From IMG/VR virus record IMGVR_UViG_2568526473_000003: 49,798 nt of DNA. One strand, 5' to 3'. The notes under the pieces were generated by a model. The model worked only from the letters and a program-made list of their open reading frames with translations, ran no database searches and was not told the DNA's origin. This DNA is from a virus (Duplodnaviria; Heunggongvirae; Uroviricota; Caudoviricetes). A program made the translations under genes and the position numbers. Of this stretch, positions 4,268 to 11,649 are shown piece after piece. The stretch's first letter is position 1. The number at the start of each line of letters is the position of its first letter.

Positions 4268-4549
4268 TCACCGTTCCTTAAAGACGCCGTTTAACATGCC
4301 GATCGCCAGGCTTAAATGAGTCGGTGTGAATCCCATCAGCGTTACCGTTTCGCGGTGCTTCTTCAGTACGCTACGGCAAATGTCATCGACGTTTTTATCC
4401 GGAAACTGCTGTCTGGCTTTTTTGATTTCAGAATTAGCCTGACGGGCAATACTGCGAAGGGCGTTTTCTTGCTGAGGTGTCATTGAACAAGTCCCATGTC
4501 GGCAAGCATAAGCACACAGAATATGAAGCCCGCTGCCAGAAAAATGCAT
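4268..4549 (-). CDS. Hypothetical early-left protein, 93 aa (non-lambda)
   Basis: ORF starts 11 nt after the orf63 stop (translational coupling geometry) and is co-oriented with the pL operon; no recognised homolog. Confidence 0.5.
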   Translation of the reverse strand: MHFSGSGLHILCAYACRHGTCSMTPQQENALRSIARQANSEIKKARQQFPDKNVDDICRSVLKKHRETVTLMGFTPTHLSLAIGMLNGVFKER

Positions 4550-4559
4550 TCAGTGGTTG

Positions 4560-4751
4560 TCATACCAGGTCTCTCTCATCTGCTTCTGCTTTCGCCACCA
4601 TCATTTCCAGCTTTTGCGAAAGGGATGTGGCTAACGTATGAAATTCTTCGTCTGTTTCTACTGGTATTGGCACAAACCTGACTCCAATTTGAGCAAGGCT
4701 ATGTGCCATCTCAATACTCGTTCTTAACTCAACAGGAGATGCTTTGTGCAT
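4560..4751 (-). CDS. Lambda orf63-like early protein, 63 aa
   Basis: 192-nt ORF with the same length and 28-nt overlap with the next gene as recalled for lambda orf63; assignment by synteny and size. Confidence 0.55.
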   Translation of the reverse strand: MHKASPVELRTSIEMAHSLAQIGVRFVPIPVETDEEFHTLATSLSQKLEMMVAKAEADERDLV

Positions 4752-4906
4752 ATCGCCTCCCGTTTATTATTTATCTCCTCAGCCAGCCGCTGGGCTTTCA
4801 GTGGATTTTGGATAACAGAAAGGCCGGGAAATACCCAGCCTCGCTTTGTAACGGAGTAGACGAAAGTGATCGCACCTACCCGGATATTATCGTGAGGATG
4901 CGTCAT
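4724..4906 (-). CDS. Lambda orf60a-like early protein, 60 aa
   Basis: 183-nt ORF with 4-nt ATGA overlap with the exo stop, as in lambda; assignment by synteny and size. Confidence 0.5.
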
Positions 4907-5583
4907 CGCCATTGCTCCCCAAATACAAAACCAATTTCAGCCAGTGCCTCGTCCATTTTTTCGATGAACTCCGGCACCATCTCGTCAAAACTCGCCATGT
5001 AATTTTCATCCCGCTCAACCACGACATAATGCAGGCCTTCACGCTTCATTCGTGGGTCATAGTTGGCAAAGTACCAGGCATCTTTTCGCGTCACCCATAT
5101 GCTGTACTGCACCTGGGCCATGTAAGCCGACTTTATGGCCTCGAAACCACCGAGCCGGAATTTCATGAAATCCCGGGAGGTAAACGGGCATTTCAGTTCA
5201 AGGCCGTTGCCGTCACTGCATAAACCATCGGGAGAGCAGGCGGTGCGCATACTTTCGTCGCGATAGATGATCGGGGATTCAGTAACATTCACGCCGGAAG
5301 TGAATTCAAACAGGGTTCTGGCGTCGTTCTCGTACTGTTTTCCCCAGGCCAGCGCCTTAGCATTAACTTCCGGAGCCACACCGGTGCAAACCTCAGCCAG
5401 CAGGGTGTGGAAGTAGGACATTTTCATGTCAGGCCACTTCTTTCCTGAGCGGAGCTTTGCTATCACGTTGTGAACTTCTGAAGCGGTGATGACGCCGAGC
5501 CGTAATTTGTGCCATGCATCATCCCCCTGTTCGACAGCTCTCACGTCGATCCCGGTACGCTGCAGGATAATGTCCGGTGTCAT
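4903..5583 (-). CDS. exo: Lambda exonuclease (Red-alpha), 226 aa
   Basis: Translation [43 protein letters not shown]... matches lambda Exo. Confidence 0.97.
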
Positions 5584-6365
5584 GCTGCCACCTTCTGCTC
5601 AGTGGCTTTCTGTTTCAGGAATCCAAGAGCTTTCACTGCTTCGGCCTGTGTCAGTTCTGACGATGCGCGAATGTCGCGGCGAAATATCTGGGAACAGAGC
5701 GGCAATAAGTCGTCATCCCATGTTTTATCCAGGGCGATTAGCAGAGTGTTAATCTCCTGCATGGTTTCATCGTTAACCGGAGTGATGTCGCGTTCCGGCT
5801 GGCGTTCTGCAGTGTATGCAGTATTTTCGACAATGCGCTCGGCTTCATCCTTGTCATAGATACCAGCAAATCCGAAGGCCAGACGGGCACACTGAATCAT
5901 AGCTTTATGCCGTAACATCCGTTTGGGATGCGACTGCCACGGCCCCGTGATTTCTCTGCCTTCGCGGGTTTTGAATGGTTCGCGGCGGCATTCATCCATC
6001 CATTCGGTAACGCAGATCGGATGATTACGGTCCTTGCGGTAAATCCGGCATGTACAGGATTCATTGTCCTGCTCAAAGTCCATGCCATCAAACTGCTGGT
6101 TTTCATTGATGATGCGGGACCAGCCATCAACGCCCACCACCGGAACGATGCCGTTCTGCTTATCAGGGAAGGCGTAAATTTCTTTCGTCCACGGATTAAG
6201 GCCGTACTGGTTGGCGACGATCAACAATGCGATGAACTGCGCATCGCTGGCATCGCCTTTAAATGCCGTCTGGCGAAGAGTGGTGATCAGTTCCTGTGGG
6301 TCGACAGAATCCATGCCGACACGTTCAGCCAGCTTCCCTGCCAGCGTTGCGAGTGCTGTACTCAT
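5580..6365 (-). CDS. bet: Recombination protein Bet (Red-beta), 261 aa
   Basis: Translation [59 protein letters not shown]... matches lambda Beta. Confidence 0.97.
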
Positions 6366-6370
6366 CCGTT

Positions 6371-6667
6371 TTATACCTCTGAATCAATATCAACCTGATG
6401 GTGAGCAATGGTTTCAACCATGTACCGGATGTGTTCTGCCATGCGCTCCTGAAACTCAACATCGTCATCAAACGCACGGGTAATGGCTTTTTTGCTGGCC
6501 CCGTGGCGTTGCAAATGACCGATGCATAGCGATTCAAACAGGTGCTGGGGCAGGCCTTTTTCCATGTCGTCTGCCAGTTCTGCCTCTTTCTCTTCACGGG
6601 CAATCTGCTGGTAGTGACGCGCCCAGCTCTGAGCCTCAAGACGATCCTGAATGTAATAAGCGTTCAT
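6371..6667 (-). CDS. gam: Gam, RecBCD inhibitor (98-aa GamS form; the upstream ATG at 6788 is out of frame)
   Basis: Translation [48 protein letters not shown]... matches lambda GamS; the [13 protein letters not shown] start is present but in a different frame. Confidence 0.9.
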
Positions 6668-6742
6668 GGCTGAACTCCTGAAAATGGCTGTGAAAATATC
6701 GCCCGCGAAATGCCGGGCTGATTAGGAAAACAGGGAAGGGGG

Positions 6743-6886
6743 TTAGTGAATGCTTTTGCTTGATCTCAGTTTCAGTATTAATATCCATTTTTTATAAGCG
6801 TCGACGGCCTCACGAAACATCTTTTCATCGCCAATAAAAGTGGCGATAGTGAATTTAGTCTGGATAGCCATAAGTGTTTGATCCAT
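6743..6886 (-). CDS. kil: Kil (FtsZ inhibitor), 47 aa
   Basis: Translation [47 protein letters not shown] matches lambda Kil. Confidence 0.9.
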
Positions 6887-7019
6887 TTTTTGGGACTCCT
6901 GGCTGATTAAGTATGTCGATAAGGCGTTTCCATCCGTCACGTAATTTACGGGTGATTCGTTCAAGTAAAGATTCGGAAGGGCAGCCAGCAACAGGCCACC
7001 CTGCAATGGCATATTGCAT
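6855..7019 (-). CDS. cIII: CIII (FtsH/HflB inhibitor), 54 aa
   Basis: Manual translation of the minus strand gives [54 protein letters not shown]; overlaps kil by 32 nt as in lambda. Confidence 0.9.
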   Translation of the reverse strand: MQYAIAGWPVAGCPSESLLERITRKLRDGWKRLIDILNQPGVPKNGSNTYGYPD

Positions 7020-7091
7020 GGTGTGCTCCTTATTTATACATAACGAAAAACGCCTCGAGTGAAGCGTTATTGGTATGCGGTAACGCAGCGC

Positions 7092-7460
7092 TCAGGCGGC
7101 TTTGATAGTCATATCATCTGAATCAAATATTCCTGATGTATCGATATCGGTAATTCTTATTCCTTCGCTACCATCCATTGGAGGCCATCCTTCCTGACCA
7201 TTTCCATCATTCCAGTCGAACTCACACACAACACCATATGCATTTAAGTCGCTTGAAATTGCTATAAGCAGAGCATGTTGCGCCAGCATGATTAATACAG
7301 CATTTAATACAGAGCCGTGTTTATTGAGTCGGTATTCAGAGTCTGACCAGAAATTATTAATCTGGTGAAGTTTTTCCTCTGTCATTACGTCATGGTCGAT
7401 TTCAATTTCTATTGATGCTTTCCAGTCGTAATCAATGATGTATTTTTTGATGTTTGACAT
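7092..7460 (-). CDS. ea10: Ea10 (lambda early protein), 122 aa
   Basis: Translation MSNIKKYIIDYDWKASIEIEIDHDVMTEEKLHQINNFWSDSEYRL... matches lambda Ea10 in sequence and position. Confidence 0.85.
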   Translation of the reverse strand: MSNIKKYIIDYDWKASIEIEIDHDVMTEEKLHQINNFWSDSEYRLNKHGSVLNAVLIMLAQHALLIAISSDLNAYGVVCEFDWNDGNGQEGWPPMDGSEGIRITDIDTSGIFDSDDMTIKAA

Positions 7461-7610
7461 CTATTCATATCCTCATAGATAAAAAATCGCCCTCACATTA
7501 GAGGGCAAAGAAGATTTCCAATAATCAGAACAAGTCGGCTCCTGTTTAGTTACGAGCGACATTGCTCCGTGTATTCACCCGTTGGAATGAATACACAGTG
7601 CTTATTCGTA

Positions 7611-8081
7611 CTAATAAAACACCCAATTTTCTGTTTCTTGGTTGTGTCCAAAGTTATATTCAATATCTGGTATTGATGTATCAATATTCTTCATCCCATC
7701 AACAAGAGTTGATACAACAGCCAAATCTTGTTTGATTCTCATTAAATGGTACTTCTTCCGGCGCAATAAACTTTCAATGGCAAGTTTCTTCGTCGGGAAT
7801 GCAAAAGATCTTTCGGCATTTTTTGCTACTTTCTTAATTGCATATCTATTTCTCCTTTGTTTCCATTCCTGTAACCACTGATTTGGTGCTGGTTTAAAAT
7901 TAACAATCCAATGCGCAGGAACCAACCATGCATAATGATCTGTCTGATGAAAAGCTATATATTGAAGTGCGAATATTTTGATTCCATCTTCTTCAACTGT
8001 CGCTTGGAATCTCCAGAAAACAGGCATTCCATCATGTTCAGTTTCTGATTCAGGAAAAGGTACGCTCCATGATTTTGTCAT
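7611..8081 (-). CDS. Hypothetical 156-aa protein inserted between ral and ea10 (pL-operon moron, AT-rich)
   Basis: Intact ORF co-oriented with the pL operon; no lambda counterpart at this position as I recall it; AT-rich relative to flanking lambda genes. Confidence 0.6.
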   Translation of the reverse strand: MTKSWSVPFPESETEHDGMPVFWRFQATVEEDGIKIFALQYIAFHQTDHYAWLVPAHWIVNFKPAPNQWLQEWKQRRNRYAIKKVAKNAERSFAFPTKKLAIESLLRRKKYHLMRIKQDLAVVSTLVDGMKNIDTSIPDIEYNFGHNQETENWVFY

Positions 8082-8146
8082 ATCTCACCTCAAATAATTC
8101 AGTGCTGTGTTTATTCTGTTGTTTATGCCAAAAATAAAGGCCACCG

Positions 8147-8347
8147 TCAGGCAGCCTTGTTATTCTGTTTACCAAGTTCTCTGGCAATCATTTCCGTCGT
8201 TCGAATTGCCCATTTATCGACATATTTCCCATCTTCCATCACAGGAAACATTTCTTCAGGCTTAACCATGCATTCCGATTGCAGCTTGCATCCATTGCAT
8301 CGTTTGAATTGTCCACACCATTGATTTTTATCAATAGTCGTAGTCAT
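8147..8347 (-). CDS. ral: Ral (restriction alleviation), 66 aa
   Basis: Translation MTTTIDKNQWCGQFKRCNGCKLQSECMVKPEEMFPVMEDGKYVDKWAIRTTEMIARELGKQNNKAA matches lambda Ral. Confidence 0.9.
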   Translation of the reverse strand: MTTTIDKNQWCGQFKRCNGCKLQSECMVKPEEMFPVMEDGKYVDKWAIRTTEMIARELGKQNNKAA

Positions 8348-8425
8348 ACGGATAGTCCTGGTATTGTTCCATCACATCCTGCGGATGCTCTTCGAACTCT
8401 TCAAATTCTTCTTCCATATCTCACC

Positions 8426-8752
8426 TCAAATAAGTGGTTTGCTGCCTAATTTCATTTTCTGTCGACCAACACAAGTCACACCCATTTCACTGCGTGGCTT
8501 GCTGTACCATGTGCGCTGATTCTTGCGCTCAATACGCTGCAGGTTGCTTTCAATCTGTTCGTGGTATTCAGCCAGCACCGTAAGGTCTATCGGATTCAGT
8601 GCGCTTTCTACTCGTGATTTCGGTTTGCGATTCAGCGAGAGAATAGGGCGGTTAACTGGCTTTGCGCTTACCCCAACCAACAGGGGATTTGCTGCTTTCC
8701 ATTGAGCCTGTTTCTCTGCGCGACGTTCGCGGCGGCGTGTTTGTGCATCCAT
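8426..8752 (-). CDS. N: Antiterminator N, 108 aa from the MDAQTRRRERR start
   Basis: Translation MDAQTRRRERRAEKQAQWKAANPLLVGVSAKPVNRPILSLNRKPKSRVESALNPIDLTVLAEYHEQIESNLQRIERKNQRTWYSKP... matches lambda N (divergent extreme C-terminus). Confidence 0.9.
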   Translation of the reverse strand: MDAQTRRRERRAEKQAQWKAANPLLVGVSAKPVNRPILSLNRKPKSRVESALNPIDLTVLAEYHEQIESNLQRIERKNQRTWYSKPRSEMGVTCVGRQKMKLGSKPLI

Positions 8753-8910
8753 CTGGATTCTCCTGTCAGTTAGCTTTGGTTGTGTGTGGGAGTCGTAGTC
8801 CTGAACGAAAACACCCCCGCAATGGCACATTGGCAGCTAATCCGGATTCGCACTTCCGGCCAATGCTTCGTTTCGTATCACACACACCAAAGCTTTCTGC
8901 TTTGAATGCT

Positions 8911-8941
8911 GCCCTTCTTCAGGGCTTAATTTTTAAGAGCA
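8911..8941 (-). promoter_or_regulatory. nutL: nutL (boxB GCCCTGAAGAAGGGC at 8911-8925; boxA-like TGCTCTTAAAAA at 8930-8941)
   Basis: Minus-strand reading reproduces the lambda nutL boxB hairpin exactly; boxA first base is T where lambda has C, by recollection. Confidence 0.8.
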
Positions 8942-8980
8942 TCACCTTCATGGTGGTCAGTGCGTCCTGCTGATGTGCTT

Positions 8981-9043
8981 AGTATCACCGCCAGTGGTAT
9001 TTATGTCAACACCGCCAGAGATAATTTATCACCGCAGATGGTT
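8981..9043 (-). promoter_or_regulatory. pL promoter with operators OL1 (8983-8999), OL2 (9007-9023) and OL3 (9027-9043)
   Basis: Minus strand reads TTGACATAAATACCACTGGCGGTGATACT; the three 17-bp operators match lambda OL1-3. Confidence 0.9.
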
Positions 9044-9194
9044 ATCTGTATGTTTTTTATATAGATTTATTTTTTGCAGGGTTGTGTGGATTGGGAAGGT
9101 GATCGAGAGATATGAATTGCGATGTTTAGCGAGTTGTATCTATTAATTTTAAAATAAATACAATTGGTTATGTGTTTTTTGGGGCGTTAGGCAA

Positions 9195-9218
9195 AGAAAA
9201 CCCGGCGCAGATGCCGGG
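9195..9218 (-). terminator. Rho-independent terminator after the cI-orf301 transcription unit
   Basis: Hairpin cccggc-gcagat-gccggg followed on the minus strand by a T-run; same position as the terminator after rexB in lambda. Confidence 0.6.
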
Positions 9219-9230
9219 CTGTGGTGGAGA

Positions 9231-10136
9231 TCAATGCTTATTTGGGAGTGCTGGTTTTTTTATCGACTCTAATAGCTCGGAGGCGTTACTAATCTTTTTG
9301 TTCCCAAGGTAATTTGGCAGTTTTTCCATTGCGTAATTATCGTGTAGCCATTTTCTGAACACGCCAAGTGCCTCAATAGGATAAATCCAAGCTGTTATAT
9401 GCTTATTTGCAGCTGACTGCCTGTAATTTTCGGGGAATAGATGTGGGTACTGCACCCTTTCCCCGAATTTCTCAGATAGCCCATTAGCTGTCCAATACTT
9501 TCCCCAGTGAATTCCAACACTTCCATCCAAAGATGTGGTGTCATCCATTGGGAATCCTCCTCCGATCAGGTTCATGGCAATGTCAGCTATCTCTCTGAAT
9601 ACTGCAAAATGAGTTGTCGGTATCTGATCGTTTAGCTTAATCCTTGCTCTATAGTTCTCGAATGAGATATCTATTGAAGCATTTGGGTTGTAATTTGACT
9701 TTTCATAAATCATTCGCTTAAGCGTGTACTCAGCCAAGCGAACAAAATTACCTATTGCGACTGACCTATCAAAATTGGTGGCATCTAGAGCGTAGTAACG
9801 GAGGATAGCCATGCAAACATAGTCAGGATAAGCATGAGTTTCCACGTTTGAGCTATTTAAAACGCGAGTGTATAGCTTTTCGACGTTATGAAACCCTTTC
9901 TCAGCTAAATACGCAGCTACTTTTTGACCTCTGGGTTTGTTTTTCTCTGTGTTCCAGTTTGATGTGAACACCCTCAGTGGCGTGTCATCAATGCCGCATA
10001 ACTTTGCGAGACCGTAGAGAGTTAGGTAAGGAGTTCCATCATTGAGAACGCCCATAGGAATATCATCAGAAACAACCTCTACTACAGGGAAAAGCTGCAT
10101 TTGATGCAGGGATTCGCTATTGCTGTTAATCGACAT
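9231..10136 (-). CDS. Hypothetical 301-aa protein occupying the rexAB slot downstream of cI (candidate lysogen-expressed exclusion/abortive-infection protein)
   Basis: Intact ORF 86 nt downstream of the cI stop, co-oriented with cI; AT-rich; does not resemble RexA or RexB; no recognised domain. Confidence 0.6.
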   Translation of the reverse strand: MSINSNSESLHQMQLFPVVEVVSDDIPMGVLNDGTPYLTLYGLAKLCGIDDTPLRVFTSNWNTEKNKPRGQKVAAYLAEKGFHNVEKLYTRVLNSSNVETHAYPDYVCMAILRYYALDATNFDRSVAIGNFVRLAEYTLKRMIYEKSNYNPNASIDISFENYRARIKLNDQIPTTHFAVFREIADIAMNLIGGGFPMDDTTSLDGSVGIHWGKYWTANGLSEKFGERVQYPHLFPENYRQSAANKHITAWIYPIEALGVFRKWLHDNYAMEKLPNYLGNKKISNASELLESIKKPALPNKH

Positions 10137-10222
10137 ATCTTAATGATTTCCTTATTTTTATTGTAGGGATCTGCTTTTTTATTTCCTACATCTAGATGCG
10201 TATAAAGTCTCTTGCTGCGGAC

Positions 10223-10939
<717 letters not shown>

Positions 10940-10946
10940 TTAAATC

Positions 10947-11012
10947 TATCACCGCAAGGGATAAATATCTAACACCGTGCGTGTTGGCTATTTTACCTCT
11001 AGCGGTGATAAT
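10947..11012. promoter_or_regulatory. Right operator: OR3 (10947-10963), OR2 (10970-10986), OR1 (10994-11010) with pRM and pR (-35 TTGGCT 10984-10989, -10 GATAAT 11007-11012)
   Basis: Three 17-bp lambda operator sites between divergent cI and cro; OR1 reads TACCTCTAGCGGTGATA. Confidence 0.85.
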
Positions 11013-11027
11013 AGTTGCATGTACTAA

Positions 11028-11237
<210 letters not shown>

Positions 11238-11244
11238 ATAACCC

Positions 11245-11276
11245 CGCTCTTACACATCCCAGCCCTGAAAAAGGGC
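11245..11276 (+). promoter_or_regulatory. nutR: nutR (boxA CGCTCTTAC 11245-11253; boxB GCCCTGAAAAAGGGC 11262-11276)
   Basis: Exact lambda nutR boxA and boxB motifs between cro and cII. Confidence 0.85.
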
Positions 11277-11355
11277 ATCAAATTAAACCACACCTATGGT
11301 GTATGCATTTATTTGCATACATTCAATCAATTGTTATCTAAGGAAATACTTACAT

Positions 11356-11649
11356 ATGGTTCGTGCAAACAAACGCAACGAGGCTCTACGAATCGAGAGT
11401 GCGTTGCTTAACAAAATCGCAATGCTTGGAACTGAGAAGACAGCGGAAGCTGTGGGAGTTGATAAGTCGCAGATCAGCAGGTGGAAGAGGGACTGGATTC
11501 CAAAGTTCTCAATGCTGCTTGCTGTTCTTGAATGGGGCGTCGTTGACGACGACATGGCTCGATTGGCACGACAAGTTGCTTCGATTCTCACCAATAAAAA
11601 ACGCCCGGCGGCAACCGAGCGTTCTGAACAAATCCAGATGGAATTCTGA
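11356..11649 (+). CDS. cII: CII transcriptional activator, 97 aa
   Basis: Translation MVRANKRNEALRIESALLNKIAMLGTEKTAEAVGVDKSQISRWKRDWIPKFSMLLAVLEWGVVDDDMARLARQVASILTNKKRPAATERSEQIQMEF matches lambda CII. Confidence 0.95.
   Translation: MVRANKRNEALRIESALLNKIAMLGTEKTAEAVGVDKSQISRWKRDWIPKFSMLLAVLEWGVVDDDMARLARQVASILTNKKRPAATERSEQIQMEF

Follow-up and report, generated by a model that had tools for sequence, protein, structure and literature searches.

What is the 156-aa open reading frame (ORF) that lies between ral and ea10 in the leftward early operon of this prophage, and what could its product do? From the sequence alone, it had been read as an AT-rich moron inserted into the pL early operon, in a neighborhood where anti-defense or host-takeover genes are often kept. 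Our analysis of the window, by which we mean the whole 49,798-nucleotide stretch of DNA, leads to a different placement. The ORF is an already annotated hypothetical gene (gp45 of HK97, L0079 of 933W) and hence no discovery, and a gene-plus-terminator cassette within a modular accessory region describes it better than the term moron. As a sequence feature it is ordinary and represents textbook lambdoid mosaicism.

The window represents a complete, integrated prophage of the lambdoid type and of mosaic composition, with an integrase gene near 1331, lambda/434-like early regions (about 97% identity) and head and tail genes, from about 25000 on, that are closest to those of phage 21 (about 92% identity). 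Its cI immunity is of the lambda type (99.3% identity over 10223-11496). A 1004-bp segment (9219-10222) holds bstA where lambda has rexA-rexB; the 301-aa ORF concerned (9231-10136, minus strand, between pL/N and cI) encodes the BstA abortive-infection protein (PADLOC PDLC02356, E 1e-105). A BstA_C gene occupies the same place in an unrelated lambdoid contig (L020).

The ORF is intact, starts with ATG and is preceded by a good Shine-Dalgarno sequence (GAGGTGAGATATG). It appears in the ORF list exactly where the sequence-only reading had placed it, and the surrounding interval is organized as follows, with the basis of each assignment in parentheses.

6974-7032, minus strand: cIII thermoregulator, Rfam Lambda_thermo RF01804, located at the start of cIII, as expected (88.5 bits; the sole Rfam match in the window)
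7049-7068, minus strand: terminator-like hairpin after ea10 (terminator scan)
7092..7460, minus strand: ea10, 122 aa, downstream neighbor of the ORF; the cassette is absent from HK97 (ORF list, lambda annotation)
7487..7508, minus strand: intrinsic-terminator-like hairpin with a T-run at the end of the ORF cassette (fold -14.2 kcal/mol, z -5.2)
7564..7601, minus strand: stable 14-bp hairpin that starts 10 nt past the ORF stop codon and is also found in lambda (RNA fold -22.9 kcal/mol, z -5.35)
7596..8099 (equivalently 7602-8105), no strand: 504-bp indel relative to lambda (blastn and sequence reading)
7611..8081, minus strand: 156-aa coding sequence of the HK97 gp45 / 933W L0079 / PHROG 1636 family (ORF list, amino acid identity, phrog_1636, dN/dS)
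8079..8097, minus strand: first copy of TTATTTGAGGTGAGATATG, comprising the Shine-Dalgarno sequence and ATG of the 156-aa ORF; 933W/HK97 homology ends at 8097 (repeat search, blastn)
8137..8158, minus strand: terminator-like hairpin upstream of the ORF, extending over the stop codon of ral (fold -13.5 kcal/mol, z -2.6)
8147..8347, minus strand: ral, 66 aa, upstream neighbor of the ORF (ORF list, lambda comparison)
8331..8417, minus strand: orf28, 28 aa, MEEEFEEFEEHPQDVMEQYQDYPYDYDY, as in lambda (read from the sequence; lambda orf28 annotation)
8415..8433, minus strand: second copy of TTATTTGAGGTGAGATATG, over the N stop codon and the orf28 ribosome-binding site (RBS) and ATG (repeat search, blastn)
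8830..8426, minus strand: N, upstream of orf28

The predicted product of the ORF (18.6 kDa, basic, pI 9.1) shares 98.7% amino acid identity with 933W L0079 (AAD25424) and 98.1% with HK97 gp45 (NP_037731), both annotated since 1999-2000; the sequence-only reading had seen the ORF but missed this family identity. Residues 1-156 match positions 1-156 of the profile phrog_1636 (‘unknown function’; E 1e-111), and the RefSeq label for E. coli copies of the gene is invariably ‘hypothetical protein’. A total of 326 phage records match the 686-nt interval between ral and ea10 at 90-99% identity, and the same gene is present in H-19B, BP-4795, Min27, phi24B, many Stx1/Stx2 phages and several BASEL temperate phages. 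In line with the earlier remark that the protein carries no recognized motif, neither the single protein nor a 65-member alignment yielded a match in Pfam, NCBIfam, PADLOC or PDB sequences, and the PADLOC defense-protein models returned 0 families at E <= 0.01. A literature search for the gene and its family by name, accession, PHROG number and anti-defense terms retrieved no paper and no experiment on function.

The gap between ral and ea10 measures 686 nt here versus 182 nt in lambda (NC_001416, 33905-34086; ea10 ends at 33904 and ral at 34087), which bears out the approximate values of 690 and 180 nt given in the sequence-only reading. Alignment with lambda, a check proposed in that reading, defined a clean 504-bp indel. 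The blastn matches cover 4555-7601 (97.6% identity) and 8100-8442 (95.6%) of the window with a 6-nt overlap, that is, six lambda bases are used twice, and the 504 extra bases agree with the difference between 686 and 182. The indel is flanked by a direct repeat, AGCACTG, at 7596-7602 and 8100-8106, where lambda has a single TGCACTG. A repeat of 6-7 bp would fit a microhomology-mediated insertion into a lambda-like genome and a slippage deletion in the lambda lineage equally well, so that loss by lambda and gain by this phage are equally compatible with the data. The term ‘inserted’, as used earlier, is therefore not supported over a deletion.

Starting from the arrangement in the window, one deletion between the AGCACTG copies would give the lambda ral-ea10 junction, and one deletion between the 19-mers would give the 933W order. 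Deriving both lambda and 933W in this way is parsimonious, although it proves nothing. The stretch 7479-7601 belongs unambiguously to neither cassette, as it goes with the ORF in HK97 and with ea10 in lambda. We considered and dropped the argument that lambda must be a deletion derivative since it keeps the 3′ flank of the ORF; the segment could equally be the upstream region of ea10.

Comparison across phages showed that the N-cIII interval is built from three interchangeable gene-plus-terminator cassettes (orf28-ral, the ORF at 7611..8081, and ea10), which occur in variable combinations and are joined at very short repeats. Lambda carries the ral and ea10 cassettes, 933W the ORF and ea10, and HK97 the ORF cassette only, without ral and ea10. 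E. coli O111 prophages and the phages phi367 and phi296 combine ral with the ORF and lack ea10, while all three cassettes are present in this window. Co-occurrence of ral and the ORF was found in only 16 complete E. coli genomes, one of which (K56-43-un) has ea10 as well.

Two repeats mark the joints, a 19-nt RBS/ATG sequence and the 6-7 nt AGCACTG. The former, TTATTTGAGGTGAGATATG, is an exact direct repeat with two copies in the window versus 0.01 expected. The 336-bp unit between its copies comprises orf28 and ral, the latter matching an E. coli gene named ‘antirestriction Ral family protein’ in RefSeq, and is missing in 933W, HK97 and locus L006. Accordingly placed are the homology breakpoints: 933W homology runs unbroken from 4501 to 8097 and is back at 8415, and HK97 homology covers 7479-8097 and then jumps to 7039-7078.

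The lambda indel junction coincides with the 5′ foot of the hairpin at 7564..7601. This hairpin has no T-run, and lambda retains it in its own ral-ea10 gap; it may be a site of RNA processing, protect a 3′ end or belong to a terminator. The element at 7487..7508, which follows gp45 in HK97 as well, is annotated there as a putative terminator. The N-cIII region is the site of lambda’s tL2 terminators, a cluster that Luk and Szybalski (1983) reportedly placed ‘between bet and ral’.

Further differences from lambda were seen on the N side of the interval. There, orf28 begins 8 nt after N, and about 53 bp (window 8443-8495) replace a segment of ~720 bp in lambda (34382-35103, including sieB) between orf28 and the end of N. 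N itself is lambda-like except for its last ~23 codons, which, like the spacer, resemble those of 933W/HK97.

The gene is carried by 598 of 5426 complete E. coli genomes (11%), in up to four copies each. Judged from codon comparisons, it is under purifying selection, with a dN/dS of about 0.06: synonymous and nonsynonymous changes number 8:2 relative to 933W (dN/dS 0.057) and 9:3 relative to HK97 (dN/dS 0.075). Full-length homologs with 55-63% identity were found among other Enterobacterales, in Pectobacterium, Brenneria and Rosenbergiella, and an exhaustive HMM search of 1.84 billion representative proteins yielded 83 clusters at E < 1e-3, mostly of 130-160 aa. All 65 aligned family members match phrog_1636 and none matches Pfam. 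Together, the full-length homologs down to 55% identity, the 83 clusters and the dN/dS rule out a chance ORF. The sequence-only reading had staked itself on two points, absence of the ORF from lambda and its conservation among relatives, and both held: the gene is absent from lambda and is kept in related phages and prophages.

At every locus examined, the homolog resides in an early operon of small uncharacterized genes. In lambdoid prophages, a 43%-identical homolog is found between N and KilR, Gam-RecT or Erf, and in Brenneria alni and a metagenomic prophage the homolog directly precedes an AlpA/Xis-like gene and the integrase. Homologs in phages and prophages of Pseudomonas, Vibrio and Marinobacterium are located near RecE, RdgC and ParA/ParB-like genes, and at three loci a distant homolog follows a C5 DNA methylase by 2-4 genes. 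No conserved partner gene adjoins the family members at the loci examined, and no informative domain fusion was found among the distant matches, the long ones being repeat artifacts or spurious extensions.

Structure prediction, likewise proposed in the sequence-only reading, gave a confident AlphaFold model (pLDDT 91.5, pTM 0.78) with a 65-sequence alignment and a poor one (pLDDT 53.6) with 19 close homologs, so that the confidence depends on the distant relatives contained in the larger alignment. The model comprises an antiparallel three-stranded sheet (strands 19-30, 33-46 and 50-55), two short helices (56-62 and 66-74), a further strand (83-86), a long helix of 33 residues (98-130) and an ordered C-terminal tail. 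The fold has no counterpart among solved structures. Foldseek against BFVD returned 13 matches at E < 1e-3, all of them uncharacterized phage proteins, from phages of Erwinia (phiEa2809), Achromobacter (phiAxp-3), Delftia (RG-2014), Rhizobium, Sinorhizobium, Tenacibaculum and Cellulophaga. We take several of these phages to be virulent (Vi1-like or N4-like). The distant relatives thus belong to phages of several phyla, including Proteobacteria and Bacteroidota, and the predicted fold is apparently phage-specific, widespread and not tied to lysogeny.

Charge is distributed unevenly along the protein. Residues 66-120 carry a net charge of +12 and both ends are acidic; across the family, the central segment has a median charge of +9 (>= +5 in 98% of members) and the C-terminal tail a median of -4. 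The near-invariant residues G33, E46, T47, K87 and A101 are no recognizable catalytic set. The enterobacterial subfamily shares a conserved N-terminal peptide, SWxVPFPE, within a stretch of lower model confidence (pLDDT 67 for the first ten residues), which we speculate might be a short docking motif.

The position and orientation of the gene bear on when it is expressed. It lies between N and cIII/kil in the leftward early operon and, as described earlier, is co-oriented with the pL operon and adjoins ral. A consensus scan of 8082-8146, upstream of the ORF, detected no sigma-70-like promoter, although a weak or atypical one could escape such a scan, and the sole promoter-like site on the minus strand of 7000-9300 was pL itself (9009-8981). 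We infer that the ORF is transcribed from pL, without a promoter of its own. In the window, the terminator-like hairpin after ral would make this expression dependent on N-mediated read-through. In HK97 and 933W, the gene is directly 3′ of N behind a 58-nt spacer in which a simple consensus scan found no terminator-like site, the first terminators coming after the gene; in these two phages, N and the gene should share a transcript from the onset of infection, which would make the gene immediate-early.

These features weigh on the moron question. A classical moron or lysogenic-conversion gene would have its own transcript in the prophage and protect the lysogen, e.g., by superinfection exclusion. 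Consistent with this, some phages have the gene between conserved flanks and others lack it there (the 504-bp indel, and the differing orders in 933W, HK97 and O111 prophages), and the gene is AT-rich and has its own terminator downstream (7508-7487; the putative terminator in HK97). The sequence-only reading had called the GC content of the ORF markedly lower; at 0.361 it is below that of the window (0.498) but close to that of its neighbors (ea10, 0.385; ral, 0.408). Low GC is a property of the whole ral-ea10 block, because ea10 and ral are nearly as AT-rich. A base composition distinct from the adjacent genes is thus missing, as is a promoter-like site upstream of the ORF in the scanned region. 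Moreover, the gene lies within the repressed pL operon, in the same orientation, and needs read-through from pL, its product has no PADLOC match, homologs occur in phages that we take to be virulent (N4-like, Vi1-like), and the defense gene of this prophage, bstA, is located elsewhere, adjoining cI. ‘Moron’ is a poor fit, and we regard a lysogen-protecting role of this kind as very improbable.

The anti-defense or host-takeover idea draws only on neighborhood, and to that extent it is plausible. A dedicated counter-defense protein would act early and neutralize restriction, abortive infection or other immunity of the host or its resident prophages. The variable region holds ral here and gene 17 in P22, the gene comes immediately 3′ of N in 933W and HK97, it is dispensable and has a patchy distribution, and distant homologs lie 2-4 genes from C5 DNA methylases at the three loci mentioned above. 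Silas et al. (bioRxiv 10.1101/2023.04.06.535777) also ranked Ral accessory regions with the most variable ones of enterobacteriophages. Yet the protein shows no similarity to the anti-defense proteins compared (Ral, P22 gp17 and orf184), differs from the DNA mimics Ocr and ArdA in being basic, and is absent from the screen of 200 accessory genes by Silas et al. Its spread over phages of Proteobacteria and Bacteroidota would suit a very conserved target rather than a lineage-specific defense. On balance, we consider a dedicated counter-defense function rather unlikely. The same holds more strongly for a regulator of the phage’s own early program (transcription, antitermination, recombination or excision) that would bind DNA or RNA on phage sequences, which appears distinctly improbable. 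Its basic central region followed by a long helix and its adjacency to N (HK97, 933W) or to xis/AlpA and int (Brenneria, metagenomic prophage) would suit such a role, but lambda and many lambdoids that lack the gene have N, nut, cIII and recombination genes in common with those that carry it, the gene is variably placed with respect to N, xis and the recombination genes, and the protein has no helix-turn-helix or other known DNA-binding motif.

Taken as a whole, the reading that we favor, if only slightly, is that the ORF, shown to be a conserved accessory-cassette gene of the pL operon (HK97 gp45/L0079), encodes a dispensable early factor that acts by binding. Lambda grows without a homolog of the gene, which is why we call it dispensable. 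The product would bind rather than catalyze, its likeliest target being nucleic acid or a conserved acidic host protein in view of the conserved basic face, and it may aid takeover of the cell or counter host interference, a role suggested by the early timing and patchy distribution. An early-expressed accessory protein that binds nucleic acid or a host factor is our best guess, made with low confidence: nucleic-acid binding is suggested by charge alone, and an acidic protein or membrane lipids would be equally good partners for the basic patch. More tentatively, gp45/L0079 might represent a new class of immediate-early effectors with an unseen fold, present in temperate and virulent phages of several phyla, that binds a universal target, either nucleic acid or a core host protein, and blunts host interference in the first minutes after infection; we view this as possible, if doubtful. 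If so, the effector would also act during induction of Shiga-toxin prophages, because the gene directly follows N in Stx phages.

Irrespective of mechanism, the gp45/L0079 family is widespread (in 11% of complete E. coli genomes and in most Stx phages), conserved and probably expressed very early, with a predicted fold that has no solved counterpart. The remaining interest of the locus is that a gene so frequent in Stx and HK97-like phages, with a probable immediate-early role and an unseen fold, lacks an assigned function. As deletions in HK97 and additions to lambda are easy to make, it is a reasonable candidate for a functional screen.

Several known systems invite comparison. Morons were reportedly defined by Juhala et al. 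(2000) from the comparison of HK97 and HK022. Like the HK97/HK022 morons, the ORF is an extra AT-rich gene between conserved neighbors with a terminator on its 3′ side; unlike them, it has no detected promoter of its own, resembles its neighbors in composition and is situated inside a repressed early operon and not in a unit that the prophage expresses. As DNA mimics, Ocr and ArdA are strongly acidic, in contrast to the ORF protein with its pI of 9.1 and net charge of +12 in residues 66-120. Closer in position is orf184 (AFM76385, 106 aa; Silas et al., bioRxiv 10.1101/2023.04.06.535777), an accessory gene of the Ral region and the trigger of the abortive system gop-beta-cII. Both are accessory genes of the same ral-bearing variable region with unknown biochemical function, but the ORF is not orf184, whose 106-aa sequence is unrelated, and no motif of the ORF family was found in the 200-gene list of Silas et al. 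The alignment of orf184 with Ea10, which RefSeq assigns to the DUF2528 family, was weak and fell short of significance (23% identity over 80 residues, E 0.21).

P22 gene 17 occupies the same early-left slot, downstream of ral and upstream of cIII/c3, and is then followed by a terminator. It differs in length (103 aa versus 156 aa) and is annotated as ‘allows growth on phage Fels2 lysogen’; as a candidate homolog it was rejected (BLASTP E 4.3, hhalign probability 2%). The closest counterparts are HK97 gp45 and 933W L0079 themselves, with 98% identity over the full length and the same RBS, 3′ flank, terminator and operon. They differ from the gene in this prophage in their immediate surroundings: there, the gene comes directly after N, whereas here orf28-ral and a terminator-like hairpin stand between the two.
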